Of a stretch of 19,639 nt of DNA, positions 1 through 14,930 are shown one piece after another. This stretch comes from a virus (Duplodnaviria > Heunggongvirae > Uroviricota > Caudoviricetes). Under the pieces are notes generated by a model. The model saw nothing but the letters and a program-made list of their open reading frames with translations. It made no database searches and was not told where the DNA came from. The stretch lies in IMG/VR virus record IMGVR_UViG_2700989171_000002; one strand, written 5' to 3'. Numbering within the stretch: position 1 is the first letter of the stretch; the number at the start of each line of letters is the position of its first letter. The translations under genes and the position numbers were made by a program.

Positions 1-42
1 GTAATGCGAAGGTCGTAGGTTCGACTCCTATTATCGGCACCA
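1..42 (+). tRNA. thrW: 3' portion of a tRNA gene (3' side of anticodon loop, T-arm, acceptor 3' strand, CCA), most likely tRNA-Thr(CGU); the 5' part lies outside the window
   Basis: GGTTCGACTCC at 19-29 is a canonical T-stem/loop, followed by an acceptor strand ending in CCA at 40-42. The leading GTAATGCG fits the 3' side of an anticodon loop with anticodon CGT. Assignment to thrW is from memory of the enterobacterial thrW sequence, not a search. Confidence 0.7.
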
Positions 43-56
43 TTTAAATCAATAAG

Positions 57-1217
57 TTACCTCGCATTTAAGTAAACCACGTTCTCCTCTTGTGCCGTAT
101 TTGTGCCATTGCGACTTATAATCGCATCGATTTTGCTTGCGTGCTCGGTGAGATGCCCGGCTGAAAGGTGGGCGTATCTTTGAACCATTTCGAGAGTTTC
201 CCATCCTCCCATCTCTTTAAGTGCAAGAAGAGAGACACCGGACTGAACCAGCCAGCTTGCCCAGGTATGCCTCAGATCATGGAAGCGGAAGTTGCTAATG
301 CCTGCCCGCTTTAACGCTCCCTTCCATGCCTTGTTGCTGTCGGTTCTCATCTTCCTTACCGCTGCTGTTTTTGTTCCGTCGCTTCGGTAGGCAGGTTTGG
401 TGTGGACAAATACCCATCTCTTATGGAGCCCCTGCTGTTTTCTTAATATCTGGCATGCGGTTTCGTTAAGAGGAACTCCGATCGCATTGCCAGCTTTTGT
501 TTCATCAGGGTGCATCCATGCCATTTTCTTATCCAGATCGACCTGTGACCACTCAAGGTCTGTAACGTTGGAACGGCGAAGGCCTGTCGTGATTGCAAAC
601 ATGACCACAGGGAAGAAGTGAGGAGCAATTTCTGCAAACAGGCGCTTCGATTCCTCCTCTGTAAGCCATCTGATGCGTCCATTCTTAACGCGTGGTGTTG
701 ATATTTTGGGTGCCCTGTCAAGCCATCCCCATTCAACAGCCATATTGAGAATGGCGCGAAGTATTGCCAGATGCCTCGTCTTCGTTCCTTTGCTTGCAAG
801 CTTTGGTTTATACTCCGGCACCGGATTGCCAAGTCGCAAACACCTGTCCCGGCTCATCTCCCAGTTCAGGCGATGGCGGCGGTTTTCCATCCCGTCTACC
901 GCCTCCATTATTTTTTCTGTTGTTATGTCAGAGAGAATGGCTTCTCTGAAGTGCAACATCCAGAACGATATAATGCTCTTGTCATCATCAATGGACTTCT
1001 TATCCGATTTCTCACGCAGCCACCGTATGCAGGCTTCCTTGAATAGCTTTTTCGGTGATTCCCCGAGATTTTTTACTCTCCACGCTTCTGCTTTCAGACG
1101 ATCGTGAAGTTCTTGCGCTTGCCTTTTGTCCGATGTTTCAAGAGAGCGTCTAACTCTTGATCCATCTGGCGCGACGAAATCGCAGTGCCACGTGCCACCG
1201 CGTAGTTTGATTGACAT
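57..1217 (-). CDS. int: Tyrosine site-specific integrase, P22 Int-like
   Basis: 386-aa ORF with the C-terminal catalytic motifs of tyrosine recombinases (HDLRHTWAS, then RYAHL with the nucleophile Tyr). N-terminal and central regions resemble P22 Int from memory. Its stop codon sits 15 nt from the tRNA 3' end. Confidence 0.93.
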   Translation of the reverse strand: MSIKLRGGTWHCDFVAPDGSRVRRSLETSDKRQAQELHDRLKAEAWRVKNLGESPKKLFKEACIRWLREKSDKKSIDDDKSIISFWMLHFREAILSDITTEKIMEAVDGMENRRHRLNWEMSRDRCLRLGNPVPEYKPKLASKGTKTRHLAILRAILNMAVEWGWLDRAPKISTPRVKNGRIRWLTEEESKRLFAEIAPHFFPVVMFAITTGLRRSNVTDLEWSQVDLDKKMAWMHPDETKAGNAIGVPLNETACQILRKQQGLHKRWVFVHTKPAYRSDGTKTAAVRKMRTDSNKAWKGALKRAGISNFRFHDLRHTWASWLVQSGVSLLALKEMGGWETLEMVQRYAHLSAGHLTEHASKIDAIISRNGTNTAQEENVVYLNAR

Positions 1218-1441
1218 GCTTTAACCTCCTGCACATCAACCGCATTCACCGCGCTATTGTGTCTCACAGACTTAAGCGCCGCAATGCAGTCTGACTTGCA
1301 AATGCGATATGGGCTTTTAGGTTTATCTGGATTTATCTTTGCGGCCTGAAGTCGTCCACTTCGTATCCACTGCGTGATAGTGCCTTTGTCTACCTTCAGA
1401 TACGACGCTGCCTCTTCACGAGTGAAGATTTCTTCTTCCAC
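1094..1441 (-). CDS. xis: Excisionase (HTH, AlpA/Xis-like), 115 aa
   Basis: ORF immediately upstream of int, GTG start at 1441 preceded by GGAG. N-terminal segment FTREEAASYLKVDKGTITQWIRSGRL is a typical excisionase helix-turn-helix. Overlaps int by about 124 nt in another frame; length matches P22 Xis (about 116 aa, from memory). Confidence 0.6.
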   Translation of the reverse strand: MEEEIFTREEAASYLKVDKGTITQWIRSGRLQAAKINPDKPKSPYRICKSDCIAALKSVRHNSAVNAVDVQEVKACQSNYAVARGTAISSRQMDQELDALLKHRTKGKRKNFTIV

Positions 1442-1531
1442 CTGGAATCTCCATTTATTGGATTGGTATTATTGCGGTAGGTCTGGATATCATTGAGCAA
1501 TGAACAGGCCTCATCGAGTATGAGGCTGTGG

Positions 1532-1876
1532 TTAGTCCTTGCGTAACTCGCTAATTCTTCTGTAAGTCTCTGGTGCTTTGTTTCCGTGTATCTTCATTTC
1601 AGACTTCAACAGATCAACGAGGGAATCCCATTCGTTGAGGATGCCTTTGAATGCCGGAACGCGCTTTGCAACCTTGTCGAATGAATCTCTGATTTCTGGG
1701 ATCTGCTCAACAAGTGCAACGCATCGTCTGAAATCGGCTGCGTCATGTGGAGCGCCGAAGTGATGACCATAGATATTCTTTTTCAGTCCACATGCGATTG
1801 AGGCAAGAGTTGCGCTACTGATGCCGACATCGCCAGTCGATTGCCATTTCAAAACCTTCATAGCCAAATCTGACAT
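1532..1876 (-). CDS. Hypothetical protein (114 aa), ea-region accessory gene
   Basis: Internal ATG at 1876 with GGAGA RBS chosen over the track start at 1903, which would lie inside the upstream terminator hairpin. No family recognised. Confidence 0.55.
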   Translation of the reverse strand: MSDLAMKVLKWQSTGDVGISSATLASIACGLKKNIYGHHFGAPHDAADFRRCVALVEQIPEIRDSFDKVAKRVPAFKGILNEWDSLVDLLKSEMKIHGNKAPETYRRISELRKD

Positions 1877-1890
1877 TTCTTGTCTCCAAT

Positions 1891-1911
1891 AAAAAACCGC
1901 CATCAGGCGGC
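1891..1911 (-). terminator. Rho-independent terminator-like hairpin (minus-strand RNA CCGCC-UGAU-GGCGG followed by a U6 tract)
   Basis: Plus strand reads AAAAAACCGCCATCAGGCGG; on the minus strand this is a GC stem followed by UUUUUU. It sits between the zinc-ribbon gene and the 114-aa gene. Confidence 0.5.
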
Positions 1912-1976
1912 TTGGTGTTCTTTCAGTTCTTCAAATCGAATATTGGTTACATTGTTTTCATATATGAATAAATAAA

Positions 1977-2156
1977 TTAGCTTTTTTCGTTGCCTTCGCG
2001 TTCTTTATTAATTTTGACAAACTCGTTTTTACCACGCTCTCCAAATGCGTCTTTAGAGTCGTTGTATCCGCAATCGCAGCACACATAATCACCAGACCAT
2101 CCACGCATTGTTTTTTCTTTTGCAATATTTCCAGAACCGCATTTTGGACAAGACAT
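1977..2156 (-). CDS. Small zinc-ribbon protein (59 aa; CPxCG...CxxCG)
   Basis: Internal ATG at 2156 with GGAGG RBS about 7 nt upstream. Two Cys pairs (CPKCG and CCDCG) typical of a C4 zinc ribbon. Flanked upstream by a markedly AT-rich stretch. Confidence 0.55.
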   Translation of the reverse strand: MSCPKCGSGNIAKEKTMRGWSGDYVCCDCGYNDSKDAFGERGKNEFVKINKEREGNEKS

Positions 2157-2252
2157 ATCACTACCTCCAAAGCATGAGTGAGATGACAACGTAACATTGA
2201 TTGGAGATTAACAATAGATTGCTGATGTAAAAGATATGTATAAGCTTCGCTT

Positions 2253-2927
2253 TCAAAGTGGAGGCTCTGGTAGCGGCATCCAGTGAGTTACGTCATCCAA
2301 GATATATCCTGATAAATACGTGAAAGCTCTATATTTTTTGTAATCAATTGGATTTGCAACCCAGTTCCAATATGCGGCCACGATTTCACCTTGACTAAAT
2401 GCCAGTAACATTTTGGTGTCTTCCGGCATTCGATCACTACAGCTTATCCAACCATCAGGAGTTACCGGAGAGTTGCCACCGGGAATATTTTCCGGAATAT
2501 TTTGTTGTGCGTTTTGTGGTTGTTCGGATTTACCCTGAAGCATGGCGGCGCGGCAGGCGTTCCAGCCAGCTGTTCGCCCAAGCGCGTAAACTTCAGATGG
2601 CTCAAGATAATCAATGTCATGCCCATCCTCATCGTCGTTCTCAGGTAATGCAGCAGGTACTACCGGTACTGGCGGAGCGGCGTAGACTTCAATAATCCCA
2701 TTATCAATAGGCCATTCCCCATCCTTGATGTAGTCACTTGTGCCGTCAACTTGCTGTTCTGCAATGTGGAATGCGCCAATAGGCTCTGCTTCCAGCGATG
2801 CCAGTGCAATACGCAGGGCAGCCAGGATATTCCCCTGGTAATCATCAAGCCCGAAAGGAAGCTCATCACGAACGCTTTCATAATCGTTGATAGCCTGCTG
2901 CAGCCATTCTCTTGTGATAGTGCTCAT
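2253..2927 (-). CDS. Hypothetical phage protein with C-terminal DUF551-like domain
   Basis: 224-aa ORF; C-terminal segment WISCSDRMPED...THWMPLPEPP resembles the DUF551 domain common in lambdoid ea-region proteins (from memory). Confidence 0.75.
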   Translation of the reverse strand: MSTITREWLQQAINDYESVRDELPFGLDDYQGNILAALRIALASLEAEPIGAFHIAEQQVDGTSDYIKDGEWPIDNGIIEVYAAPPVPVVPAALPENDDEDGHDIDYLEPSEVYALGRTAGWNACRAAMLQGKSEQPQNAQQNIPENIPGGNSPVTPDGWISCSDRMPEDTKMLLAFSQGEIVAAYWNWVANPIDYKKYRAFTYLSGYILDDVTHWMPLPEPPL

Positions 2928-3496
2928 GATGCCTCTCCTTTACATGCTTCGGTGACGTTTATTCCAGCGTTGTGCAGTGCCTCAAGAACCTGATGCTGCC
3001 TGTAAACCATTTCAGTGTGGTAAGGCTCGTCAAAATCGACGCGATGCAACATGCTATAGCATTGCGGAAGCACAACCTCCCGCGCCTCCAGTTCAGCGAT
3101 GCGCTTCTCTGCGGCTTCTGTTTTTCTCCTTAACGCCTCGCTACAACCATCAGCTTTTCGGATTGCTAACTCCAAGTGTTTATTCAGCGCTTCTGCGGCT
3201 TCCAGCTCAACGCGCAGCTTCCCTACCGTTAGCGCAATTTCCTCGTTCTCCTGGTCGCGGGATTTGATGTATTGCTGGTTTCTTTCCAGCTCATCCAGCA
3301 GCGCCAAGACGGTAGCGGGATTGGCTGCGGCGATGAAAGCAGCATCACGCGATTCGTTTTCACTGAACACCATAGCTATTTGCTCATGGTTCACGCCGTC
3401 AGTGGAGTAAATCTCATCGTCGAATTCAACAGCCCACTGACCTTTCGTAGCCTTCTCTGCGGCCTCACGCAGTGCCTGGTAATTAATCTCGCTCAC
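2924..3496 (-). CDS. Ead/Ea22-like coiled-coil protein
   Basis: 190-aa ORF with GTG start at 3496 preceded by AAGGAGG. Coiled-coil-rich middle region; resembles Ead/Ea22-family proteins of lambdoid early-left regions (from memory). Confidence 0.7.
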
Positions 3497-3508
3497 TGGT
3501 TGCCTCCT

Positions 3509-3661
3509 TTACGCCACATCGCATTCAGATATTTGTTTTGATTCACTGATGGAAAAGAATTTCTCTTAAGCAATTCCTCTCTCGATGGCATTGGCTTTAC
3601 GCGTTGGCGAATAATCATTTCTGCCGGAAGAATGCCGGGATTGTATGCAAGTCCTCTCATG
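3509..3661 (-). CDS. Possible small ORF (50 aa), hypothetical
   Basis: Hand translation [50 protein letters not shown] with an AGAGGA-type RBS. Fills the gap between neighbouring genes; below the ORF-track cutoff. Confidence 0.3.
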
Positions 3662-3676
3662 GTAAATTCCTCTTTG

Positions 3677-3991
3677 TTAATTTATTCGTATGCCTGCTCT
3701 TTCTTCATCGAGTTTTTTTAGCTTGTATCGCATAGCTCTTACTGAATAAATTGAGCGGCAGGTTGCAATTGCTATTTCTTCTGCGGAGAACTTACCGAAA
3801 AGTGATACTTCGGCTCTTGTCCATCGTCTTCCACGAAGTCGGCTAACAATGTCAGCGCCAATCCTTGTTGCTTTCGCCATTACTGCTTTTTCAGTCCTTT
3901 CCAGTTTTTCTGCGATAACTTCAACTGGCATTGTCGCCGCTACCTCGCGCAAGAAATCGACTTCCCATTTCTCCCATGGAGTCTTTTTCAT
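3677..3991 (-). CDS. Hypothetical protein (104 aa) with two internal W-x3-EV-x2-L repeats; in the position P22 abc2 occupies downstream of its recombinase
   Basis: Track ORF. Tandem repeat noticed by eye (WEKWEVDFL and WTRAEVSLF). Positional analogy only. Confidence 0.6.
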
Positions 3992-4002
3992 AGGCGATAC
4001 CG

Positions 4003-4491
4003 TTATTTGATAAGAAGTGAAGGTTTCCCAACTTTGAGTTGAGCACCGGGGATATTTATTCCTGCTTTTAGTTGGTGTTTGATTGCCAGTTTGTCGGCTT
4101 TAATTGTCGTTTCGAACTCAACGTATTCAGGAGGAAGGGCGCTTGAGTCGATGATTTCTACAGTTTCTGACGGTTTGCGGATTGTTACCTGGTGAATACC
4201 TGCTCGAATCTTTTTCTTGCCAACCATTTCAAGCGATGACGCTATATACGCCATAATGCTGTCAATCTTATTTTGAATTACTGCGGCTCGCTCATTTAGT
4301 GACTTTGCCTCGTCCTTGAGGCGTTCAGCATAACCATATTCATTTTTAATAATGGCAAGAAGTTGCTCTATTTTATCGGTAAATTCTCCTTCCATGCCTT
4401 CTATTGTGTCAGCAATCATCTCTGGCTCTAAATCTGAATCCATCAGCTTTGCGTATTCATTGGCTATTTCATACAGTTTGCTCACTGGCAA
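4003..4491 (-). CDS. Gp157-family / Gam-like protein accompanying the RecT recombinase
   Basis: 162-aa ORF overlapping the recT 3' end (translational coupling). Sequence resembles the Siphovirus Gp157 family often found next to RecT (from memory; uncertain). Confidence 0.55.
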   Translation of the reverse strand: MPVSKLYEIANEYAKLMDSDLEPEMIADTIEGMEGEFTDKIEQLLAIIKNEYGYAERLKDEAKSLNERAAVIQNKIDSIMAYIASSLEMVGKKKIRAGIHQVTIRKPSETVEIIDSSALPPEYVEFETTIKADKLAIKHQLKAGINIPGAQLKVGKPSLLIK

Positions 4492-5371
4492 CCTCCAGTT
4501 TCGCTTTGCATTCTATGTAAATGGCTTGTACGTTCTGCTGCAATTTCATTCCAGATGTCAGGCGATATGCTTCTGCAAAATATCGCTTCAAATCATCCAT
4601 GTTTTCTGCCTGAGCCATTTCATCGCAAAGAAGTTGTGCTTTATCCATTATTTCCTGCTGGCGTTTCCGTTCATCTTCGCGGATATCTTCCTCTGATTTG
4701 TGCGGCATAACTGGTTCCTGATGCATACCTTCATCTTCGTTAAGCAGGTGAATGGCATTATCCAGTCGCTGGGCTTTAGGCCAGTATTTGCTGGCGCGTT
4801 TAACTATTGTTTTACGCGCCATCTCTTCCCAGAATGTTTTCCACGGTCCATTCTTTGCCTTGCTCGTTGCTTCCACAGCTTTAATTTCTGCCAGACTCAT
4901 TTCTTCAGTCAGGTAGTCACCATCTGCTGTTTTAACCGTGCAATAACCTCCAACAATAGAGCCTCGCTCACCAAATGCGTTGTATTTGTGGGTTGGTGCT
5001 GAATCAAGGCCATTTGATTCATAGGTGTCGTTTGAGTACACCAGTTTGCATTGCCCCCACTTAATTGATCCTGTCGATTGCGCAAGATGAAGTAATCCCA
5101 TGTAACTGATATCAAGGCACACCATGCCGTCGCGAGGAACCAGATAAGCCAGTTTGCTGGCCGGGTTTAAGGTGATGCCGATCGCCGCAACATTGATGAT
5201 GGCGTTCTGTGCGCTGGTTGGATTTGCCAGTGCTGTTTTAGCCAGGTAATCGTTTTTCTGGAAATACTGAATTGCAAACTGGCTTTCCTTAGCCCATGTC
5301 ACCGTCTGTTCAGTCAATGCTCCGCAGAATAACTGCTCCTGCTGTTTAACGAATTCAACGATATTGCTCAT
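4469..5371 (-). CDS. recT: RecT-family single-strand annealing protein
   Basis: 300-aa ORF. The motif NGPWKTFWEEMARKTIVKRASKYWP closely matches the conserved RecT segment NGPWVTHWEEMAKKTAIRRLFKYLP of Rac RecT (from memory). Confidence 0.9.
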   Translation of the reverse strand: MSNIVEFVKQQEQLFCGALTEQTVTWAKESQFAIQYFQKNDYLAKTALANPTSAQNAIINVAAIGITLNPASKLAYLVPRDGMVCLDISYMGLLHLAQSTGSIKWGQCKLVYSNDTYESNGLDSAPTHKYNAFGERGSIVGGYCTVKTADGDYLTEEMSLAEIKAVEATSKAKNGPWKTFWEEMARKTIVKRASKYWPKAQRLDNAIHLLNEDEGMHQEPVMPHKSEEDIREDERKRQQEIMDKAQLLCDEMAQAENMDDLKRYFAEAYRLTSGMKLQQNVQAIYIECKAKLEVASEQTV

Positions 5372-5679
5372 GCAGCTTCTCCAAAAATGTGTCTGCGTTT
5401 GAATATTGCGAAGGCATATTCAGCCTTAACTCTTTCGGTTATTGCATCCCAGAACCATTCAGCGGCTTTTTCCTGATAGTTACAGTCATCATCTTCCAGC
5501 CAGTCGATAGCGTCCTTAGTGTGTTCATCTGGTTTATATGAGCGAAGCATTTCGCTTATTGGGTCGCAACGTTTGCAGAGGCGATCAACTTCACTGTTGA
5601 TTCGTTCGTAATCATCATCGGTAAAACTTGCGATGATTTGCGATATTTCACGCTTATCATTCAGAGTCAGAATCATCAT
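5368..5679 (-). CDS. Hypothetical early protein (103 aa), in the kil/arf position between cIII and the recombinase
   Basis: Track ORF with RBS; overlaps the recT start (ATGA-type coupling). No family recognised. Confidence 0.6.
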   Translation of the reverse strand: MMILTLNDKREISQIIASFTDDDYERINSEVDRLCKRCDPISEMLRSYKPDEHTKDAIDWLEDDDCNYQEKAAEWFWDAITERVKAEYAFAIFKRRHIFGEAA

Positions 5680-5760
5680 CTTTCTCCTGTTCTTTGTGCT
5701 GATTGAGCATTTTGTTCATCTGACGAATGAATTCTTCGTCTGACCAGTTATCTGTAAAAC

Positions 5761-5931
5761 TCATGGACGGCCTTGTTGTTTCAAAATATCCCAAAGCTTT
5801 TCGAGCAAACTTTTCATTCTTGGTTGTTTAAAGTCTGCTCCGGTTAAAATATTTTTTCGTGAATGCTGTACCGATAAAATTGGGTTGAAAGGGCGAACCG
5901 ATGCCGCCCCTGCAATAGCGAACTGTTGCAT
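5761..5931 (-). CDS. cIII: CIII-like protein (56 aa), probable FtsH inhibitor
   Basis: Internal start MQQFAIAG at 5931 with AAGGAG RBS. The N-terminal MQ-AIAG and C-terminal SLLEKLWDILKQQGRP parallel lambda CIII (MQYAIAG...SLLERI...LIDILNQPGVP, from memory). Confidence 0.6.
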   Translation of the reverse strand: MQQFAIAGAASVRPFNPILSVQHSRKNILTGADFKQPRMKSLLEKLWDILKQQGRP

Positions 5932-6157
5932 AGGATGCTCCTTCTGTTTGATTGCATAACGAAAACGCCTCGAATGAAGCGTTATTGGTATGCATATAAA
6001 AAAGCCCTCACACTGGAGGGCAAAGAAGATTTCCAATAATCAGAACAAGTCGGCTCCTGTTTAGTTACGAGCGACATTGCTCCGTGTATTCACTCGTTGG
6101 AATGAATACACAGTGCAGTGTTTATTCTGTTATTTATGCCAAAAATAAAGGCCACTA

Positions 6158-6255
6158 TCAGGCAGCTTTGTTGTTCTGTTTACCAAGTTCTCTGGCAATC
6201 ATTGCCGTCGTTCGTATTGTCCACTCCATTGATTCTTATCAATAGTCGTAGTCAT
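6158..6255 (-). pseudogene. ral: ral (restriction alleviation) remnant with a frame-shifting internal deletion
   Basis: Minus strand encodes MTTTIDKNQWSGQYER then a stop. Shifted by one frame, the same DNA ends in RTTAMIARELGKQNNKAA followed by a stop. These match the N- and C-termini of lambda Ral (MTTTIDKNQWCGQFKR...RTTAMIARELGKQNNKAA, from memory) with roughly 100 nt missing between them. Confidence 0.6.
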
Positions 6256-6325
6256 AAGGATAGTCCTGGTATTGTTCCATCACATCCTGAGGATGCTCTT
6301 CGAACTCTTCAAATTCTTCTTCCAT
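6239..6325 (-). CDS. Possible micro-ORF encoding a highly acidic 28-aa peptide (MEEEFEEFEEHPQDVMEQYQDYPYDYDY)
   Basis: ATG at 6325 preceded by GAGGTGA. Ends overlapping the ral start. Very short, so speculative. Confidence 0.3.
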   Translation of the reverse strand: MEEEFEEFEEHPQDVMEQYQDYPYDYDY

Positions 6326-6387
6326 ATCTCACCTCAAATAAGTGGTTTGCTGCCAAAACAATGAACCATCCGGAAATTCCAGATAGT

Positions 6388-6615
6388 TCATAATTCACTC
6401 TTCAATACTTCCAACTTACTAATAGCCGATAGATATCCGCGCTGATAAGGCATCATCATTCCTTCGAGCTTGCCACTTCTTAACTCCTCCCTGAGCAATT
6501 GTATTGCTTGATCAATAACCTCTGCCTTAGCGTCCTTTATGGCTTGCTTGCGGGGCTTTGCTTTCTGCTTTGGCAGATTTCTCAAGCATGATGGAATGTA
6601 TGTCTGATTCATCAC
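6388..6615 (-). CDS. Hypothetical early protein (75 aa) immediately downstream of N
   Basis: Track ORF, start abutting the N stop. No family recognised. Confidence 0.55.
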   Translation of the reverse strand: MMNQTYIPSCLRNLPKQKAKPRKQAIKDAKAEVIDQAIQLLREELRSGKLEGMMMPYQRGYLSAISKLEVLKSEL

Positions 6616-6924
6616 TTACCTGGCTGTCAGTTGTTTTGATTTCCGGTAGCCTGCCGCGTAAAGAGCTACGTTTGGCAGGCAAATACTTCCACTGCATTCG
6701 TCGGTATTTTGGTTACGAATGTTGCCGAGTGATATTGCTTTTTCAGAAAGGATTAAACGTTTTCTCGGGGCTTCCTGAACAGGTTCCTCACTGTCTGTGC
6801 CGAAGATCGAATCGATGATGTTGCATATAGCATCACGCTCGATAGCCAGCTTTCTGCGCCGCTCATGACGGCGAGTTTTGGCATTTCCTGCAAATGTTGA
6901 TTTCCCGTACACGATTACCGTCAT
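6616..6924 (-). CDS. N: Antitermination protein N (P22 gene 24-like) with arginine-rich motif
   Basis: Internal ATG at 6924 with GAGGA RBS. N-terminal GNAKTRRHERRRKLAIERD is the arginine-rich boxB-binding motif of P22-type N. Located about 120 nt downstream of nutL. Confidence 0.85.
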   Translation of the reverse strand: MTVIVYGKSTFAGNAKTRRHERRRKLAIERDAICNIIDSIFGTDSEEPVQEAPRKRLILSEKAISLGNIRNQNTDECSGSICLPNVALYAAGYRKSKQLTAR

Positions 6925-7043
6925 GATATTTTCCTCATGTGAAATGGCTTTGGTGGTGATGCGCCAGGTGCTGATCTTCTGGTTGCTGTCGTTGCAGCTG
7001 CAATTCACATCACCGCCAAACCCATCTCGTTTGGTATCTGTTT

Positions 7044-7078
7044 GCGCTTTGTCAGCGCCCCATCGAAGTTAAAGAGCC
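7044..7078 (-). promoter_or_regulatory. nutL site: boxA (GGCTCTTTAA) plus boxB hairpin (GCGCUGACAAAGCGC)
   Basis: Minus-strand sequence reads GGCTCTTTAACTTCGATGGGGCGCTGACAAAGCGC. boxB is a perfect 4-bp GC stem with a 7-nt loop matching the P22 nutL boxB as remembered. Confidence 0.8.
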
Positions 7079-7123
7079 TGCCAATCTGTTCCGTTTGGCT
7101 TCCAGCTTCCTGCTGATGGCTAA

Positions 7124-7152
7124 ATAGTACGATGTGTACTTTATTGAGTCAA
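7124..7152 (-). promoter_or_regulatory. pL promoter (-35 TTGACT, 17-nt spacer, -10 TACTAT) with overlapping operator palindrome AGTAC-N5-GTACT (7126-7140)
   Basis: Read directly from the minus strand, correctly placed upstream of nutL and N. The palindrome overlaps the -10 and spacer, as expected for an OL1-type operator. Confidence 0.7.
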
Positions 7153-7214
7153 TACAAAATGTTCTAAATGTGGTTAGTTTTTTATAACACTTTGTATTTT
7201 ATTGATTTATATTT

Positions 7215-7245
7215 TGGAAAAAGAAAACCCGACGCTAAGGTCGGG
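7215..7245 (-). terminator. Rho-independent terminator downstream of the repressor gene (stem CCCGAC/GUCGGG followed by a U-rich tract)
   Basis: Plus strand reads GAAAAAGAAAACCCGACGCTAAGGTCGGGTT; on the minus strand this is a hairpin followed by UUUUCUUUUUC. Lies between the cI stop and the pL operators. Confidence 0.6.
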
Positions 7246-7277
7246 TTATTGTTGTGTGTTTTAGAGTGGTGAGGCTG

Positions 7278-7937
7278 TTAACTAAATGTCTCTTCAGGCC
7301 ACTGGCTGGCGATAACTTTCCCTACTACGGAACAGCTATCATTGCATGGGATCATTGGATATTGCGGGTTTAGTGGTTGTAGGAACACCTGACCGCTATC
7401 CCTGATCAGTTTCTTGAAGGTAAACTCGTCACCACCAAGTCTGGCTATGCAGAAATCACCTGGCTCAACAGCCTGCTCAGGGTCAACGAGAATTAACATC
7501 CCGTCAGGAAAGCTTGGCTTGGATCCTGTTGGTGCGGTCATGGAATTACCTTCAACTTCAAGCCAAAACGCACAATCACTGGCTTTTTTGGTTGTGCTGA
7601 CCCATCTCTCCGCATCACCTTTGGTAAAGGTTCTAAGCTCAGGCGAGAACATCCCGGCCTGAACATGAGAAAAAACAGGGTACTCATATTGTTTTTTAAC
7701 GGGGGCAGATGAGTATTCGCCAACAGGTGAAAATGTACCGTCGTGGTTGAATGAGACGTTATCAATACCAAGGTATTTAAACACCACACCAATCTCGTCA
7801 AGAGATGGATGACGAGATCCGCGCAACCAGTGACCAATTCCACCCTGCGTCATACCAAGCTCTTCAGCTAACTTCTCTTGAGTTATGCCGAGTTCTTTCA
7901 TTCTGGATCTAGCCAGTTCATACCATTTCATCTTCAT
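7278..7937 (-). CDS. cI: CI-type prophage repressor (N-terminal HTH, C-terminal S24/LexA-like autopeptidase domain)
   Basis: Internal ATG at 7937 with AAGGA RBS gives 219 aa. HTH segment [27 protein letters not shown]-terminal EGNSMTAP...FTFKKL...LNPQYPMI resembles P22 C2 and LexA (catalytic Ser in GNSM, Lys in FKKL). Confidence 0.9.
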
Positions 7938-7993
7938 ATCCTTATTATTACGCTCTGTACTAAAACCATCCATGCACAAGATGTATTTTTTGT

Positions 7994-8022
7994 TTGCATT
8001 CCAAAAGTACATATCGTATTAT
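7994..8022 (+). promoter_or_regulatory. pR promoter (-35 TTGCAT, 17-nt spacer, -10 TATTAT) with overlapping operator-like palindrome AGTAC-N5-GTATT (8006-8020)
   Basis: Read directly; about 20 nt upstream of the cro start. The palindrome resembles the one at pL. Confidence 0.6.
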
Positions 8023-8048
8023 TGTTTCATGGTTACTATGGAGGGCAT

Positions 8049-8264
8049 ATGAGCAACCTACGAAAATATCGAGAGTCACTGAATATCTCTCAAACAACAC
8101 TTGCTAAGGCGGTTGGATGCACACAGGGAGCTATCGGACATTGGGAATCTGGTCGTCGCTTCCCAGACCTTAAAACATGCCGTGCTCTTGTTGCGTGCCT
8201 AAACAAGTTAGGCGCAAAAGTCAGTCTTGATGACGTGTTCCCGCCGGAACACAAAGCCGCTTAA
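8049..8264 (+). CDS. cro: Cro-like HTH repressor (71 aa)
   Basis: Internal ATG at 8049 with GGAGGG RBS. HTH segment ISQTTLAKAVGCTQGAIGHWESG. Divergent from cI across the operator region. Confidence 0.8.
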   Translation: MSNLRKYRESLNISQTTLAKAVGCTQGAIGHWESGRRFPDLKTCRALVACLNKLGAKVSLDDVFPPEHKAA

Positions 8265-8274
8265 TAAGCGGATC

Positions 8275-8309
8275 AGCTCTTTATCAATCTGCACCGCCGA
8301 CAACGCGGT
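8275..8309 (+). promoter_or_regulatory. nutR site: boxA (AGCTCTTTA) plus boxB hairpin (ACCGCCGACAACGCGGU)
   Basis: Immediately downstream of cro. boxB stem ACCGC/GCGGU matches the P22 nutR boxB as remembered. Confidence 0.75.
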
Positions 8310-8373
8310 AACTAATTAATCACTCATCGAAAGATGAGTATTAGTGATTATTTACCTATGGAAATAGTAAGAA

Positions 8374-8670
8374 ATGGAACAAACAAGTTACAGCAAACTA
8401 TCACAGCGCGACGTTGATCGCGCAGAAACAGATTTACTCATCAACCTGTCAACGCTTACCCAGCGCGGTCTGGCAAAGATGATTGGCTGTCATGAATCGA
8501 AGATAAGCAGAACGGACTGGAGATTTATTGCTTCGGTCTTGTGTGCTTTCGGAATGGCATCAGACATCAGTCCGATTAGCAGGGCTTTTAAGTATGCGCT
8601 TGATGGACTCACCAATAAAAAACGCCCGGAGGCAACCGAGCGTTCTGAACAAATCCAGATGGAATTCTGA
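8374..8670 (+). CDS. cII: CII-like transcriptional activator
   Basis: 98-aa ORF. C-terminus LTNKKRPEATERSEQIQMEF is nearly identical to the lambda CII C-terminus (ILTNKKRPAATERSEQIQMEF, from memory). HTH segment at GLAKMIGCHESKISR. Confidence 0.85.
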   Translation: MEQTSYSKLSQRDVDRAETDLLINLSTLTQRGLAKMIGCHESKISRTDWRFIASVLCAFGMASDISPISRAFKYALDGLTNKKRPEATERSEQIQMEF

Positions 8671-8702
8671 GGTCATTACTGGATCAATCCACAGGAGTAA
8701 TT

Positions 8703-8864
8703 ATGACAAAACGTCGTAAGAAATACCAGGAAAAAGAAGAGATTCGACACCCTGATTCACCTGAGGGATTAGTGGTAGCCGCAGCAAATAACAGGGCGTT
8801 CGCAGAGCGCCTTGTTGGTGTTTACAGACTAGCCAAAGCAGGAGTGAAACATGGGCGTCGTTAA
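8703..8864 (+). CDS. Possible small basic protein (53 aa) between cII and the replication initiator
   Basis: Hand translation MTKRRKKYQEKEEIRHPDSPEGLVVAAANNRAFAERLVGVYRLAKAGVKHGRR, ATG preceded by AGGAGT. Below the ORF-track cutoff. Confidence 0.4.
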   Translation: MTKRRKKYQEKEEIRHPDSPEGLVVAAANNRAFAERLVGVYRLAKAGVKHGRR

Positions 8865-8913
8865 GTTAGCTGATTACAGGCATAACCCTGTACAACATCA
8901 GGAGGCATCCAGT

Positions 8914-9741
8914 ATGGGGTATGTCTCTATACACCGCCAGTTTATGGACAGCAGGCTCTATAAGGACTCTCAGGCAGTACATCTTTGGCTTCACTTAATC
9001 CTCAAGGCTAATCACGAATCTACTGTCGTCAATACGGATATCGGTCCGATAACTGTTGATCGCGGTCAGATGATAACTGGACGCCCGTCGCTGGTCAGAG
9101 AAACATTCATTCCAGACAACAAAGTTCGGAGCTTATTACGGACTTTTGAGTCGAAAGGGATGCTTAATATTTGCTCGATGGGGAAGAAATTTAGCCTGTT
9201 TACAATCGTTAAATATGACGATTTTCAGGCAAAAAATTGTCCAACGGTTGTCCAACGGTTGTCCAACGCAAACACCAGTAATGGCGCGTCTCTCAGCGGA
9301 GATTGTCCAACGGTTGTCCAACGGTTGTCCATAAACAATAATATAAATAATATCTCTAATACTGACGTATTAGAGAGTGCCACAGCAGACAAAAAGTCTG
9401 ACAAGAAAAAACCTTCCGTTAGCTGTCAGGATGTTGTCGATGCTTACCACGAAATCCTTCCTGAAGCGCCAAGAATCCGCGCACTGAATGACAAGCGTAA
9501 AAACCAGATCCGAACGTTCTGGCGCAAAGCCGGAGTGATAACCCGCCAGCTTGACGGGCATGGGTTCACGATGCAGGACTGGAGAAATTATTTGAGCTAC
9601 GTAGGCGAAAATTGCCGATGGATGTTCGAAGAGCGTCCAAACCATCAACGCGGAACCGTCTGGCACAAAAAGGGATTTGATTTCCTGCTTAACGATAATA
9701 CCTACCTGAAAGTTCGTGAGGGTGAACACGATGACCGATAA
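8914..9741 (+). CDS. Replication initiator, lambda O-like (P22 gene 18-type), containing the origin iterons
   Basis: Same frame as track ORF 8851..9741, but the ATG at 8914 has a strong AGGAGG RBS; 8851 is an alternative start. The iteron array lies inside the coding sequence, as in lambda O. Its stop overlaps the helicase start. Confidence 0.75.
   Translation: MGYVSIHRQFMDSRLYKDSQAVHLWLHLILKANHESTVVNTDIGPITVDRGQMITGRPSLVRETFIPDNKVRSLLRTFESKGMLNICSMGKKFSLFTIVKYDDFQAKNCPTVVQRLSNANTSNGASLSGDCPTVVQRLSINNNINNISNTDVLESATADKKSDKKKPSVSCQDVVDAYHEILPEAPRIRALNDKRKNQIRTFWRKAGVITRQLDGHGFTMQDWRNYLSYVGENCRWMFEERPNHQRGTVWHKKGFDFLLNDNTYLKVREGEHDDR
9237..9335. repeat. Replication origin iterons: two clusters of three tandem 11-bp direct repeats (TTGTCCAACGG), followed by an AT-rich tract to about 9370
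   Basis: Units at 9237, 9248, 9259 and 9303, 9314, 9325 (last unit degenerate), then ATAAACAATAATATAAATAATATCTCTAAT. Seen directly; in-frame they encode the repeated peptide CPTVVQRLS. Confidence 0.85.
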
Positions 9742-11167
9742 TTTTTATGCGCCGCCCCATAGCATCGAGGCAGAGCAGGCGGTGATTGGTGGATTGCTTC
9801 TGGATGATGACAGCAGTGAGCGCGTCCAGAAAGTTCTGGCGATGCTGAAGCCTGATTCATTTTACAGCCGACCACACAAAATTCTTTTCGAAGAAATAAC
9901 CAGAATGCACCGGGAGCAAAAGCCAGTAGATGGCCTGACGCTTTTCGATGAACTGGAGCGCAAATCGTTAACGGTGTCTGTTGGCGGTTTTGCTTATATC
10001 GCTGAGATCGCAAAGAACACGCCAAGCGCAGCAAACATCGTTGCCTATGCAATGCAGGTTCGTGAAACCGCAATGGAACGCTACGCCATCAACCGCATGA
10101 CTGAAGCGACGGAATTGCTCTATTCCCGCAACGGAATGACTGCAACGCAGAAGTACGAAGCTATTCAGGCGATTTTCACGCAACTGACAGACCATGCAAA
10201 AACCGGATCGCGTCGCGGACTTCGCTCATTTGGTGAGGTCATGGAAGACTGGGTTAGCGACCTTGAGAAGCGATTTGACCCATCAGGCGAACAACGGGGA
10301 ATGAGCACAGGGATCCCATCGCTGGACAGGATGCTGTCACCGAAAGGTCTGGTGAAAGGCTCTCTGTTTGTCATTGGCGCTCGCCCTAAGATGGGGAAAA
10401 CGACGCTATACAGCCAGATGGCAATCAACTGCGCAGTGCATGAGAAAAAGCCCGCTCTGATGTTCAGCCTTGAAATGCCAGGAGACCAGATACTGGAAAA
10501 ACTGGTAGGGCAGAAGTCTGGTGTTAACCCGAATATTTTTTACCTTCCGGCGACAAATGACGCTGATGACGGCTATCAGGGTGATTACGATGGTGACTTC
10601 AACAGGGCGATCGAAACAGCTAATCGTTTGAGTGAAATCGACCTGCTTTACATCGACGACACGCCGGGATTATCTCTGGCTCAAATCGTCAGCGAAAGCC
10701 GTCGAATCAAGCGAGAAAAAGGATGTGTTGGCATGATTCTGGTCGATTACCTGACACTAATGACCGCTGAGAAGGCCGATCGCAACGACCTTGCTTACGG
10801 CATGATCACCAAAGGACTGAAGAACCTTGCCAAAGAGCTTGATTGCGTTGTTGTGCTTCTGACGCAGCTTAACCGCGCACTGGAAAGCCGAACCAATAAA
10901 CGCCCATTACCAAGTGACTCACGAGATACAGGGCAGATTGAACAGGATTGCGATTATTGGGTGGGGATCCATCGTGAAGGTGCTTTTGATGACAGTGTTC
11001 CACCTGGTGAAACCGAACTAATCCTTCGTCTCAATCGTCATGGCAATACCGGCACGGTGTATTGCATTCAGGCAAATGGCGCTATTTATGACACAGACCA
11101 ACAGTCTGCTGAAATGCGCCGCCGTGAACGCGAGGAGCCGCAGTCCAAGAAGAAAGGAGGATTCTGA
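9731..11167 (+). CDS. DnaB-family replicative helicase (P22 gene 12-like)
   Basis: Track ORF 9716 (GTG) to 11167; ATG at 9731 preferred (GAGG RBS, ATGA overlap with the initiator stop). DnaB N-terminal domain, Walker A (GARPKMGKT) and DnaB-type C-terminal motifs. Confidence 0.88.
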   Translation: MTDNFYAPPHSIEAEQAVIGGLLLDDDSSERVQKVLAMLKPDSFYSRPHKILFEEITRMHREQKPVDGLTLFDELERKSLTVSVGGFAYIAEIAKNTPSAANIVAYAMQVRETAMERYAINRMTEATELLYSRNGMTATQKYEAIQAIFTQLTDHAKTGSRRGLRSFGEVMEDWVSDLEKRFDPSGEQRGMSTGIPSLDRMLSPKGLVKGSLFVIGARPKMGKTTLYSQMAINCAVHEKKPALMFSLEMPGDQILEKLVGQKSGVNPNIFYLPATNDADDGYQGDYDGDFNRAIETANRLSEIDLLYIDDTPGLSLAQIVSESRRIKREKGCVGMILVDYLTLMTAEKADRNDLAYGMITKGLKNLAKELDCVVVLLTQLNRALESRTNKRPLPSDSRDTGQIEQDCDYWVGIHREGAFDDSVPPGETELILRLNRHGNTGTVYCIQANGAIYDTDQQSAEMRRREREEPQSKKKGGF

Positions 11168-11196
11168 TGACCATCTACATCACTGAGCTAATAACA

Positions 11197-11227
11197 GGGG
11201 CTATTTACACAGTAGCCCTTTTTTATT
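11197..11227 (+). terminator. Rho-independent terminator (GGGGCUA...UAGCCC followed by UUUUUUAUU), tR2 analogue at the start of the nin region
   Basis: Read directly, about 30 nt after the helicase stop. Confidence 0.65.
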
Positions 11228-11251
11228 GGATTAAGAACGAGGGGGATCCTG

Positions 11252-11464
11252 ATGGACACCGTTAACGGAATGTGTTCAGACGCACCGCGTGCCAAAAAAT
11301 GTAAATGCGGAAAATCACCGACAATATTCGACATGGAGAACGGGTGCCAAATCTACTGCGCTAACCACGCCGCTGTGGCGGCCGCGAATTATCGCAGTGC
11401 GGTAACGGAGTGGAATAACCTGAAATCTGTTAGAGAGGGAAGTCATGAAAAAACTAACCTTTGA
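11252..11464 (+). CDS. Hypothetical Cys-rich small protein (70 aa), NinA position
   Basis: Track ORF with GAGGGGG RBS; CKCG...CQIYCANH suggests metal binding. No family recognised. Confidence 0.55.
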   Translation: MDTVNGMCSDAPRAKKCKCGKSPTIFDMENGCQIYCANHAAVAAANYRSAVTEWNNLKSVREGSHEKTNL

Positions 11465-11885
11465 AATTCGATCCCCAGCACATCAGCAAAACGCTATTCA
11501 CGCGGTACAGCAAATTCTTCCAGACCCAACCAAACCAATCGTAGTAACCATTCAGGAGCGCAACCGCAGCTTAGACCAAAATCGGAAGCTTTGGGCTTGC
11601 CTTGGTGACGTTTCGCGTCAGGTTGAATGGCATGGTCGCTGGCTGGATGCAGAAAGCTGGAAGTGTGTGTTTACCGCAGCATTAAAGCAGCAGGACGTTG
11701 TTCCTAACCTTGCCGGGAATGGCTTTGTGGTAATAGGCCAGTCAACCAGCAGGATGCGTGTAGGCGAATTTGCGGAGCTATTAGAGCTTATACAGGCATT
11801 CGGTACAGAGCGTGGCGTTAAGTGGTCAGACGAAGCGCGACTGGCTCTCGAATGGAAAGCGCGATGGGGAGATCGGGCTGCATGA
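11445..11885 (+). CDS. ninB: NinB (Orf-family recombination protein)
   Basis: 146-aa ORF essentially matching lambda NinB as remembered ([31 protein letters not shown]...). Confidence 0.9.
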
Positions 11886-12055
11886 TGCGATGTTATCGGT
11901 GCGGTGAATGCAAAGAAGATAACCGCTTCCGACCAAATCAACCTTACTGGAATCGATGGTGTCTCCGGTGTGAAAGAACACCAACAGGAGTTTTACCACT
12001 ACCGCAGGAAAAGGAGGACGTGTGGCGAGACAGCGACGAAGTATTACTCAAATAG
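11882..12055 (+). CDS. ninD: NinD-like protein (57 aa, Cys-rich)
   Basis: ATG at 11882 overlapping the ninB stop (ATGA). Translation [34 protein letters not shown]...; same length as lambda NinD. Confidence 0.7.
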
Positions 12056-12198
12056 CGTTAGACAACCTGATTTTTACTCCTACCAAACGCACCAAATCCC
12101 GCAAGAAACCAATCCCCACAGAAAGCCAGGTAAAGACATTCGATTATGTCTACGGGCTGTTACAGGCCAAATGGAACCGCATGAGGAAAACAAGGTGA
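12022..12198 (+). CDS. ninE: NinE-like protein (58 aa)
   Basis: GTG start 4 nt after AAGGAGG. Translation [42 protein letters not shown]... resembles lambda NinE (MRRQRRSITDI...PTKRT...KTF, from memory). Confidence 0.65.
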
Positions 12199-12368
12199 TT
12201 GACCCAAATCGAAGTTACGAACAAGAAAGCGTCGAGCGGGCTTTAACGTNNNNNNNNNNCTGCGGTCAGAAGCTGCATGTGCTGGAAGTTCACGTGTGCT
12301 CCGATTGCTGCGCAGAACTGATGAGCGATCCGAATAGCTCAATGTACGAGGAAGAAGACGATGAATGA
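12195..12368 (+). CDS. ninF: NinF-like protein (57 aa), interrupted by a 10-nt run of N
   Basis: GTG start overlapping the ninE stop (GTGA). ...ESVERALT[gap]CGQKLHVLEVHVCSDCCAELMSDPNSSMYEEEDDE matches lambda NinF as remembered. Reading frame is preserved across the gap. Confidence 0.7.
   Translation: MIDPNRSYEQESVERALTXXXXCGQKLHVLEVHVCSDCCAELMSDPNSSMYEEEDDE
12250..12259. other. Assembly gap (10 N)
   Basis: Run of N characters inside ninF. Confidence 0.95.
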
Positions 12369-14432: not shown

Positions 14433-14439
14433 CCATAAT
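14410..14439 (+). promoter_or_regulatory. Late promoter pR' (-35 TTGACA, 18-nt spacer, -10 CATAAT); the Q utilisation site is expected to overlap
   Basis: Read directly; the -35 lies within the last codons of Q, as in lambda. Confidence 0.6.
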
Positions 14440-14450
14440 TAGAAGGTAAG

Positions 14451-14494: not shown

Positions 14495-14504
14495 GCACAA
14501 CAGG

Positions 14505-14923: not shown

Positions 14924-14930
14924 CTAAGAC

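Follow-up and report, generated by a model that had tools for sequence, protein, structure and literature searches.

The recT gene of the window (the whole 19,639-nucleotide stretch of DNA analysed here) lies in what is probably the Rec module in the early left operon of an E. coli prophage of the P22-like/lambdoid kind. The module is of the HK140 type, in which a RecT annealase is combined with a Gp157 ('MuGam-type') protein, and a phage exonuclease and SSB are absent. This layout is not new. The HK140 module was described by Zheng, Casjens, Davidson, Amundsen & Smith 2025 (PMC12315714) as a RecT-type annealase with a 'MuGam' anti-RecBCD protein, no nuclease and no SSB, and the window carries a near-identical allele of this already catalogued layout (HK140, mEpX1, Gally), which is common in E. 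coli. In that survey, 84 of 246 modules had no nuclease, and the P22 functional class (anti-RecBCD and SAP only) comprised 46 phages. By gene content and position, the module in the window fits this lambdoid class (anti-RecBCD and SAP, no SSB, no nuclease; PMC12315714), its anti-RecBCD role being putative.

The module genes were all encoded on the minus strand and tightly coupled. Within the window the order was cIII, the 35-aa ORF, the 103-aa gene, RecT, the Gp157 gene, the 104-aa HTH gene and the DUF2737 gene (Table 1). The four ORFs of the earlier note (3677–3991; 4003–4491, 162 aa; 4469–5371; 5368–5679) were present where it had put them, with the 103-aa gene preceding recT. The stop codon of cIII overlapped the start codon of the 35-aa ORF in the sequence ATGA, the end of the 35-aa ORF overlapped the start of the 103-aa gene, and the 103-aa ORF and RecT again overlapped in ATGA. 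At the upstream boundary, the cIII-like protein matched P22 C3 weakly (28% over 53 aa). No Chi sites were observed, which is uninformative because only approximately 0.6 were expected at this length.

Table 1. Genes of the Rec module and its boundaries, with window coordinates
Feature	Coordinates	Strand	Family match or annotation
cIII-like gene, 56 aa; upstream module boundary	5761..5931	-	orthologous ORF annotated cIII in mEpX1, Kapi1, HK542
35-aa acidic ORF MSFTDNWSDEEFIRQMNKMLNQHKEQEKDDDSDSE	5657..5764	-	phrog_17766, E 1.1e-15
103-aa acidic helical protein	5368..5679	-	phrog_3486, E 5.7e-59
RecT-family single-strand annealing protein, 300 aa	4469..5371	-	PF03837, E 2.5e-33
Siphovirus Gp157-family protein, 160 aa from GTG 4485	4003..4485	-	PF05565, E 3.2e-36
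104-aa basic protein, two HTH-like halves	3677..3991	-	phrog_323, E 2.8e-20
DUF2737 protein, 55 aa; downstream module boundary	3493..3660	-	PF10930, E 9.1e-32

The assignment of a clear RecT-family annealase, already made from the sequence in the earlier note, was borne out. RecT scored above the curated cutoffs of both the Pfam profile PF03837 (115.7 bits, cutoff 24) and TIGR00616 (76.8 bits, cutoff 52.65), and it matched phrog_148 (E 1.8e-91). With the Rac prophage RecT equivalog NF007351 it stayed below the cutoff (90.9 bits, cutoff 296). The window RecT represents a lineage other than that of the Rac prophage, corresponding to 'SAP-4' in PMC12315714, a SAP type that functions in HK140 without a nuclease and with MuGam. 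A RecE-, YqaJ- or lambda Exo-type exonuclease had been reported missing near recT, and an exonuclease domain in a neighbouring ORF had been named as the result that would overturn that reading. Such a domain was sought with Pfam scans of 30 window ORFs between int and the small terminase (those of the module plus 20 other substantial ones; int, cI, the lysis genes and the final ~1 kb lay outside the scan). None of these ORFs, including the neighbours of recT, matched YqaJ (PF09588), RecE, lambda-Exo, DUF3799 or PDDEXK. The only nucleases found in the scanned ORFs were YbcO (13083–13373) and RusA (13370–13732), both in the nin region, which together with NinB were the recombination helpers of the window.

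In a survey of 160 viral contigs, RecT was followed by Gp157 in all 80 contigs of the window's RecT class. In the sister RecT class, YqaJ was the next gene in 69 of the 80 contigs, and none of the 160 carried both Gp157 and YqaJ. Gp157 sits exactly in the exonuclease slot of the sister modules. The metagenomic contig L012, for instance, had a 36-aa ORF, a 103-like gene, RecT, YqaJ, a 104-like gene and DUF2737, and the window has the same series with Gp157 for YqaJ. Modules with RecT and a YqaJ/lambda-Exo-type exonuclease (phi80 type; Cronobacter phage ENT47670, Erwinia phage Midgardsormr38, L012) shared with the window a RecT core that was 50–65% identical and a 103-aa family member upstream, as well as, in L012, the 104-aa family and DUF2737 downstream. 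They differed in having the exonuclease where the window has Gp157, and in a RecT C-terminal domain of a different, unrelated type.

The window RecT comprised a conserved core (aa 1–214; 4730–5371) and a separate C-terminal domain (aa 215–300; 4472–4729). In comparison with the exonuclease-linked RecTs, whose cores are similar as given above, the C-terminal domain was just 17–20% identical. In comparison with the Gally RecT, the core was 86% identical and the C-terminal domain 95%; the core difference is due to mosaicism. The same type of C-terminal domain (44–56% identity) preceded Gp157 in HK639, KO-TP1, PA-1, phage 15b and phiA005. It was also present on the Erf cores of PdC23 and HK542, and in PdC23 it again preceded Gp157. 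As a modest addition to the published catalogue, the type of annealase C-terminal domain tracks the absence or presence of a phage exonuclease. The exchange of this domain between Gp157- and YqaJ-linked RecTs, and the occupation of the exonuclease slot by Gp157, could indicate that Gp157 acts chiefly by contacting the annealase, whose C-terminal domain it would bind so as to bring RecT to DNA ends, and is not a RecBCD blocker. We consider this unlikely. In all 80 contigs with an HK542-type Erf, which has a C-terminal domain of this family, the next genes were an SSB-like gene and Abc2, and Gp157 was missing. Some Erf genes stand beside Gp157 although no domain of this type was detected in them. 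Moreover, mosaic phages co-inherit adjacent DNA, and linkage alone could explain the pattern of domains and partners. A dedicated Gp157-binding function of the domain, for which 86 loci and the PdC23 Erf spoke, was downgraded because the HK542-type Erf has this domain family but no Gp157.

The gene after recT had been described as a coupled, Gp157/Gam-like gene of 162 aa. Its family and coupling were upheld, its length probably needs correction and the Gam link was not confirmed. The most likely start is GTG 4485, giving 160 instead of 162 aa, with GGAGG 6 nt upstream of this codon and homologues that are 160 aa long. From this start, the gene overlaps the RecT stop by 17 nt. The protein matched PF05565 over its full length (125.2 bits, cutoff 28.6; profile positions 1–162 of 162), a profile that all 42 aligned homologues also matched, and it matched phrog_253, annotated 'Mu Gam-like end protection' (E 1.2e-52). 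The match to Mu Gam itself (PF07352) was colinear (27–147 of 149) but sub-threshold (16.3 bits, cutoff 28.3); PF07352 was matched by 10 of the 42 family members, with a best E of 0.0011. An hhalign comparison of Gp157 with Mu Gam gave a probability of 1%, the two having only the local motif 'VRpPSxSv.i.D' in common, and they belong to different Pfam families and PHROGs (491 for Mu Gam, 253 for Gp157). Structure prediction, which had been proposed as a check, yielded an AF2 monomer model of Gp157 with a pLDDT of 87, showing a long helix (23–89) and a small C-terminal domain. Foldseek of this model against the PDB returned nothing at E<=0.001, neither Gam nor Ku, and the fold search in BFVD returned Gp157-family proteins only. 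Sequence searches of the PDB with the three small proteins of the module and a Gp157 profile likewise gave nothing meaningful.

Experimental work on any Gp157 protein was not found in the searchable literature. The Gp157 of the HK140 module was classed as a 'MuGam' anti-RecBCD protein by analysis alone (PMC12315714). Genes for Gp157, Mu Gam, DUF2483 and DUF1351 occupy equivalent positions beside erf and sak4 in Firmicutes phages (PMC8093625). Gp157 is a putative 'MuGam-type' DNA-end protection or anti-RecBCD factor. Homologues in BFVD and GenBank are named 'Resistance protein', and following these annotations and the Pfam description Gp157 might be a phage-resistance or superinfection-exclusion factor with no part in recombination. 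This is very improbable for a protein that is constantly encoded beside annealase genes, within Rec modules of unrelated phages, and is translationally coupled to RecT. The 'resistance' label reportedly goes back to a cloned origin fragment of an S. thermophilus phage (the work of Foley et al. in 1998) and not to the protein.

The 104-aa protein shared phrog_323 with P22 Abc1 (1.3e-23) and Mu gp9 (5.2e-29). Mu gp9 was closer to it than P22 Abc1 is: BLASTP aligned it to Mu gp9 with 32% identity over 44 aa, and the profile of the 104-aa family matched Mu gp9 with 22.7 bits. With P22 Abc1 there was no BLASTP match, and hhalign gave a weak, colinear alignment over 77 columns (probability 18%, E 0.0014). 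Abc1-type HTH proteins sit in Rec modules from P22 to Mu. In the Mu gp9 (E8)-Gam pair, a phrog_323 HTH protein adjoins a DNA-end-protection gene, much as the 104-aa gene adjoins that of Gp157, with its PHROG annotation of end protection; the order there is the reverse of that in the window, and Mu has no annealase, whereas the window has RecT. The earlier note had seen a tandem internal repeat in the 104-aa protein, which was weakly supported. Its halves were identical at 11 of 47 positions, with a Smith-Waterman score equal to the shuffle mean, and a profile of unit 2 did not find unit 1 above shuffles, although it clearly found the third unit of 152-aa homologues (31–36 bits). Two HTH-like halves are the most fitting description of the protein, which has a pI of 10.0 and most likely binds DNA. 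In 7 related viral contigs, its slot after Gp157 was occupied by a true P22-type Abc1 (at least 100 bits); the allelic forms in other contigs were P22-type Abc1 or a 64-aa single-unit form.

Upstream of recT, the 103-aa protein (pI 4.6) was predicted to be all-helical; the AF2 model, a structure prediction as proposed in the earlier note, had a pLDDT of 75. The protein was 98–99% identical in the modules of HK140, mEpX1, Gally and Kapi1. The family is small (47 representative clusters among 1.84 billion proteins) and has no annotation so far. Homologues with 38–80% identity immediately preceded annealase genes with either a RecT or an Erf core, namely before RecT and Gp157 (L010, PA-1), before RecT and a YqaJ exonuclease (L012, ENT47670, Midgardsormr38) and before Erf and Gp157 (PdC23). 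That this family sits directly upstream of annealases, RecT and Erf alike, is a second modest addition. The 103-aa protein is most likely an annealase cofactor, given its coupling to annealase genes of both core types. The idea that it is a Kil/Arf-like counterpart was not sustained, as PHROG profiles and BLASTP detected no similarity to P22 Arf or Kil. P22 Arf matched phrog_2445 only, the 103-aa protein phrog_3486 and the 35-aa ORF phrog_17766/2123, its N-terminal 20 aa accounting for the phrog_2123 match. The 35-aa ORF (pI 4.3) was identical to Kapi1_014, preceded the 103-aa gene in 78 of 80 related viral contigs, and had the 'SDEEFI' motif alone in common with P22 Arf.

The layout had been likened to that of P22, and this parallel held in part. 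The P22 genes (c3-kil-arf-erf-abc1-abc2-orf56) have the same early-left-operon position as the window module. Both modules have an annealase without a phage exonuclease, a small phrog_323 HTH protein downstream of it (Abc1 in P22) and, at the end, an orf56/DUF2737 homologue, which is 77% identical and in P22 comes after abc2. However, the annealase is Erf in P22 and RecT in the window, Abc2 is absent from the window and Gp157 from P22, and the upstream 35-aa and 103-aa genes have no detectable relation to P22 Arf/Kil beyond the six-residue motif. No Abc2 homologue (PF11043, phrog_656) was found among the scanned window ORFs. When the small proteins of the window were compared with P22 Abc1, Abc2, Arf, Kil and orf56 by BLASTP, orf56/DUF2737 was the lone match.

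A P22-style system, in which the 103- and 104-aa proteins are Abc-like and convert bound host RecBCD into an exonuclease serving RecT, would agree with the gene order, with the shared phrog_323 and with the positional allelism of the 104-aa gene and true Abc1. The record of phage Gally also names the 104-aa protein 'Anti-RecBCD protein 1'. Even so, we regard such a system as quite unlikely. Among the P22 proteins, binding and reprogramming of RecBCD has been demonstrated for Abc2 alone, which the window lacks. It is Abc2, not Abc1, that binds RecC (PMC9836394; PMC5928155). P22 Abc1 is an HTH protein (10.1101/2023.04.06.535777) without known function. Nor do the 103- and 104-aa genes stand in for a nuclease, since they are found as well around modules with a YqaJ exonuclease (L012, ENT47670, Midgardsormr38) or a nuclease of the ExoVIII/DUF3799 type (SEN22). 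The proposal that the small proteins modulate host nucleases therefore fared differently for its members: it agrees with the classification of Gp157 as anti-RecBCD (PMC12315714), and it is weakened for the 103- and 104-aa proteins by their occurrence beside phage exonucleases. These two are conserved Rec-module accessories, the 104-aa HTH protein being of the Abc1/Mu gp9 family, in modules with or without an exonuclease.

For the HK140-type module with RecT and Gp157, we hypothesize the following course. After infection or induction, Gp157 would bind or protect the ends of linear phage DNA or otherwise neutralise RecBCD; blocking of DNA ends, not reprogramming of RecBCD, would be expected of a Mu Gam-type protein. 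RecT would then anneal single-stranded regions to their complements, whether these regions were produced by nucleases or helicases of the host or became accessible at replication forks. This could yield the circular or concatemeric recombinant DNA needed by a headful-packaging phage, with NinB/Orf, RusA and YbcO of the nin region providing mediator and junction-resolving functions. It counts against this course that simple end capping would leave the 3' single-stranded DNA for RecT without an explained source.

More tentatively, the comparisons could be read as a constant chassis (small acidic peptide, 103-aa protein and Abc1/Mu-gp9-type HTH protein) with a swappable YqaJ/Gp157 slot, the annealase C-terminal domain switching with the slot. 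In such a chassis, which we consider possible but doubtful, translational coupling may link the 103-aa protein to the annealase whether its core is RecT or Erf, and its family may be a general cofactor of annealases that had so far gone unrecognised. The 'G/P22-type' C-terminal domain may serve as an adaptor through which RecT or Erf cooperates with nucleases of the host or with Gp157 and no phage exonuclease. Should Gp157 or the 103-aa protein prove to be genuine cofactors of RecT, dsDNA recombineering in recBCD+ hosts could be improved with them, and they would show how an annealase functions without its own nuclease.

The DNA identity of the module to Gally, mEpX1, HK140 and Kapi1 was 93–94% over 96% of positions 3400–6100, and at least 80% of the region was carried by 264 of 5,426 complete E. 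coli genomes. The Rec module of these four phages ('SAP-4 + MuGam, no nuclease, no SSB', PMC12315714) had the same genes in the same order, flanked by DUF2737 and cIII genes as in the window. The differences were allelic only, apart from kil, which stands between cIII and the 35-aa ORF in Kapi1 and is absent here. The neighbouring ral gene was a deletion remnant. The loss of kil relative to Kapi1 and the state of ral might suggest a decayed, non-functional module that has lost its exonuclease. This is scarcely credible, since every module ORF is intact and coupled, the plaque-forming phages HK140, mEpX1, Gally and Kapi1 have the same arrangement, and the arrangement is conserved across genera at protein identities of 44–60%.

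The window (19.6 kb) corresponds to the early region of an E. coli prophage of the P22-like/lambdoid kind. Its genes were identified by Pfam and PHROG matches, some being named by position alone.

Features of the early region, with coordinates and basis of assignment
Feature	Coordinates	Strand	Basis
Integrase	57-1217	-	position
Excisionase-like gene, HTH_17		-	Pfam/PHROG
DUF551 and Ead/Ea22 genes		-	Pfam/PHROG
DUF2737 gene	3493-3660	-	Pfam/PHROG
Recombination: 104-aa gene	3677-3991	-	Pfam/PHROG
Recombination: Gp157 gene	4003-4485 (most likely start)	-	Pfam/PHROG
Recombination: RecT gene	4469-5371	-	Pfam/PHROG
RecT C-terminal domain (aa 215-300)	4472-4729	-	
Recombination: 103-aa gene	5368-5679	-	Pfam/PHROG
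35-aa ORF	5657-5764		
cIII		-	
ral remnant	6159-6255	-	
Putative mini-ORF	6238-6324	-	
N	6616-7008	-	Pfam/PHROG
Repressor	7278-8012	-	position
cII		+	
Replication-initiator-like gene		+	position
DnaB-type helicase, NinB, antirepressor, YbcO, RusA, NinH, Q		+	Pfam/PHROG
Lysis genes		+	position
T5orf172/MUG113 gene (GIY-YIG-like)	16493-16978	+	Pfam/PHROG
Small terminase, P22 gp3-type		+	Pfam/PHROG

The four ORFs from which the earlier note had built a recombination module were all present at the coordinates given there, with family matches far beyond chance: RecT (PF03837, E 2.5e-33; TIGR00616, above cutoff), Gp157 (PF05565, E 3.2e-36), the 103-aa protein (phrog_3486, E 5.7e-59) and the 104-aa protein (phrog_323, E 2.8e-20). 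As read from the sequence, they form a tightly coupled gene string. The cIII stop overlapped the start of a conserved acidic 35-aa ORF, which overlapped the start of the 103-aa gene, whose stop in turn overlapped the RecT start (ATGA). The most likely start of Gp157 is GTG 4485, which has GGAGG 6 nt ahead of it; the resulting protein has 160 aa, as in all homologues, and its gene overlaps the RecT end by 17 nt. In the alignment of the 103-aa family (A4; window 5368-5372), nearly all members ended in E[AV]A, an ending compatible with a conserved GCATGA at which the stop overlaps the start of the annealase gene downstream. Translational coupling would then be family-wide; the overlap itself was verified in the retrieved loci only. 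One E. coli protein (P0145) was a natural fusion in which the N-terminus of the 35-aa ORF (MSIADTWSDEEFIRQMNKMLNQHKEQEKDDD) runs into the last 40 residues of the 103-aa protein; the two genes overlap, and a deletion between them is the apparent cause. The tandem internal repeat proposed for the 104-aa protein was the one weakly supported element: its halves were identical at 11 of 47 positions, and their alignment scored the same as the mean of the shuffles. With a profile built on the second half, the first went undetected; the third unit of 152-aa homologues was clearly detected.

Pfam scans that took in the module ORFs and 20 other sizeable ORFs of the window (outside them lay int, cI, the lysis genes and the final ~1 kb) yielded no match to YqaJ, RecE, lambda-Exo, DUF3799 or PDDEXK, bearing out the claim that RecT has no exonuclease nearby. 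The small flanking genes are no substitute for the exonuclease: the same families also surround exonuclease-carrying modules. A metagenomic phage contig (L012) carried, in order, a 36-aa ORF, a 103-like gene (77% identical), RecT, a YqaJ exonuclease, a 96-aa homologue of the 104-aa protein and DUF2737. Homologues of the 103-aa protein also abutted RecT, with an exonuclease next, in Cronobacter phage ENT47670 (49% identity) and Erwinia phage Midgardsormr38 (38%). In Salmonella phage SEN22, 103-aa and 104-aa genes about 90–94% identical to those of the window flanked an ExoVIII/DUF3799 nuclease and a phrog_11517 protein (1986-3376), with no annealase in this core. The same flanks around a completely different core show cassette exchange between conserved flanks. 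Since the flanking genes are common to both kinds of module, the difference lies in the middle slot, occupied by the YqaJ exonuclease in the sister modules and by Gp157 here. In a survey of 160 viral contigs with our own profiles, Gp157 followed window-class RecT in 80/80 contigs and YqaJ followed sister-class RecT in 69/80; the two occurred together in none of the 160. The Gp157 slot is the equivalent of the exonuclease slot.

The Gp157-linked and YqaJ-linked RecT classes were 50–65% identical in their cores (aa 1-214). Their last ~86 residues were conserved within each class and unrelated between classes (17–20% identity). The window type of C-terminal domain recurred at 44–56% identity in six phages. 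Gp157 was the next gene in HK639, Klebsiella KO-TP1, Pantoea PA-1, phage 15b and Aeromonas phiA005; in Pantoea phage PdC23 the domain was carried on an Erf core (L174 2015-2647; PF04404, E 6e-44), in the order 103-like gene, Erf, HNH insertion, Gp157. The Erf C-terminus of E. coli phage HK542 (L004 2363-2968) matched the window domain at 27.8 bits, far above shuffles, and also matched the P22 Erf C-terminus. The shared domain, the C-terminal ~50–86 aa of the window RecT, is thereby tied to P22 Erf via HK542. A dedicated Gp157-binding function of this domain was considered and is weakened by HK542 Erf, as modules of that type carried an SSB-like gene and Abc2 and no Gp157 in 80/80 contigs. In addition, no such domain was detectable on a few Erf genes that lie beside Gp157. 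YqaJ was found alongside the window-type domain in none of roughly 180 loci, and it is defensible that this domain family is found in modules without a phage exonuclease while a different domain accompanies YqaJ. Because the counts are phylogenetically non-independent and adjacent DNA is co-inherited, the pattern is a lead and not proof. It fits the view that partner-interaction domains are probably shuffled (Zheng et al., PMC12315714).

The P22-like layout suggested earlier held for the slot of the 104-aa gene and the orf56 boundary, and not for Abc2, the 103-aa protein or the 35-aa ORF. For one gene the analogy is better than could be judged from sequence alone, and for the others it is worse. 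P22 orf56, the gene after abc2 in that phage, was 77% identical to the gene closing the window module. The 104-aa protein shared phrog_323 with P22 Abc1 (E 1.3e-23) and phage Mu gp9/E8 (E 5.2e-29), and its orthologue is labelled 'Anti-RecBCD protein 1' in the phage Gally record. Its similarity to Abc1 was marginal (no BLASTP match; hhalign probability 18%, colinear over 77 columns), whereas it resembled Mu gp9 more clearly (32% over 44 aa; family-profile score 22.7 bits). Mu gp9/E8 lies immediately upstream of Mu gam (L007 5482-6325). By phrog_323 membership and neighbours, the members of this HTH family thus lie next to Gam in Mu, Gp157 in the window (3677-4485), Abc2 in P22 and YqaJ in L012. 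In related viral contigs (L050-L061, L062-L085), the slot after Gp157 held the two-unit 104-aa type in 40 distinct RecT contexts, genuine P22-type Abc1 (at least 100 bits) in 7 and a 64-aa single-unit form in 8. These three allelic small basic HTH forms define an 'Abc1-type HTH' slot. There are also versions with three units, 152 aa long (P0177-P0187).

No Abc2 homologue was found among the window ORFs scanned. Abc2 is the RecC binder in P22 (PMC5928155; PMC9836394), which argues against the P22-style reprogramming of RecBCD by Abc proteins that had been envisaged. Abc1 itself has no assigned function (PMC12315714); in the only recent data it figures as an HTH protein that triggers a P4-linked death response (10.1101/2023.04.06.535777). 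By PHROG and BLASTP, the 103-aa protein and the 35-aa ORF showed no detectable relationship to Arf or Kil except a six-residue SDEEFI motif.

We could not confirm in the present analysis that Gp157 is Mu Gam-like. Gp157 aligned colinearly with PF07352 below threshold (16.3 bits vs 28.3), and for 10 of 42 Gp157 homologues PF07352 ranked first among the families other than their own (best E 0.0011). Its PHROG label is 'Mu Gam-like end protection', and a local motif is common to both proteins. The hhalign probability for Gp157 and Mu Gam was 1%, and the two belong to different PHROGs. The Gam/Ku fold requires a dimer. A literature search found no experimental work on any Gp157 protein.

On this gene content, Gp157 would shield the ends of linear phage DNA against RecBCD or neutralise RecBCD in some other way, RecT would anneal single strands made by host enzymes or exposed at forks, and NinB, RusA and YbcO would finish the recombination events. 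Both the HTH protein of the Abc1/Mu-gp9 type and the acidic 103-aa protein may serve Rec modules in general as accessories. DNA binding is probable for the first; the second probably acts on the annealase, given that its coupling to it is kept across RecT and Erf cores. We regard this scheme as a whole as reasonably likely, with most doubt attached to what Gp157 actually does. The observation behind the earlier note stands, and its interpretation in part. The Chi site (GCTGGTGG) was absent from both strands of the window (1-19639). The absence agrees with phages encoding an anti-RecBCD function (PMC12315714) but carries little information, as chance alone predicts only ~0.6 sites at such length.

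The module is already known and common. Across 96% of its length, the 2.7-kb region shared 93.6–94.3% identity with phages Gally, mEpX1 and HK140; with Kapi1 the figure was 93.2% across 87%. Of 5,426 complete E. coli genomes, 264 carried at least 80% of the region, and 76 records had a match at ≥99% identity. Zheng, Casjens, Davidson, Amundsen and Smith (Genome Res 2025, PMC12315714) examined the Rec modules carried by 246 lambdoid phages, 84 of them without a nuclease and 46 of the P22 functional type (anti-RecBCD and annealase only). Their catalogue gives HK140 a RecT-type annealase and MuGam as the anti-RecBCD protein, with neither nuclease nor SSB. In Firmicutes phages, genes for Gp157, Mu Gam, DUF2483 and DUF1351 take equivalent positions beside erf and sak4 (PMC8093625). 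Given these studies and the near-identical phages, an exonuclease-less RecT beside Gp157 is catalogued and not novel. What is left is a modest lead in the 103-aa family, in the Abc1-type slot and in the way the annealase C-terminal domain switches with the exonuclease.

The ral remnant consisted of an ORF (MTTTIDKNQWSGQYERRQ, then a stop) followed out of frame by a segment ending in IRTTAMIARELGKQNNKAA and a stop. Both ends matched P22 Ral, indicating that restriction alleviation was inactivated by an internal deletion or frameshift. Just upstream of the remnant and overlapping it was the extremely acidic putative mini-ORF of 28 codons (MEEEFEEFEEHPQDVMEQYQDYPYDYDY). Between the lysis genes and the small terminase sits the inserted T5orf172/MUG113 gene, which is probably mobile or accessory.
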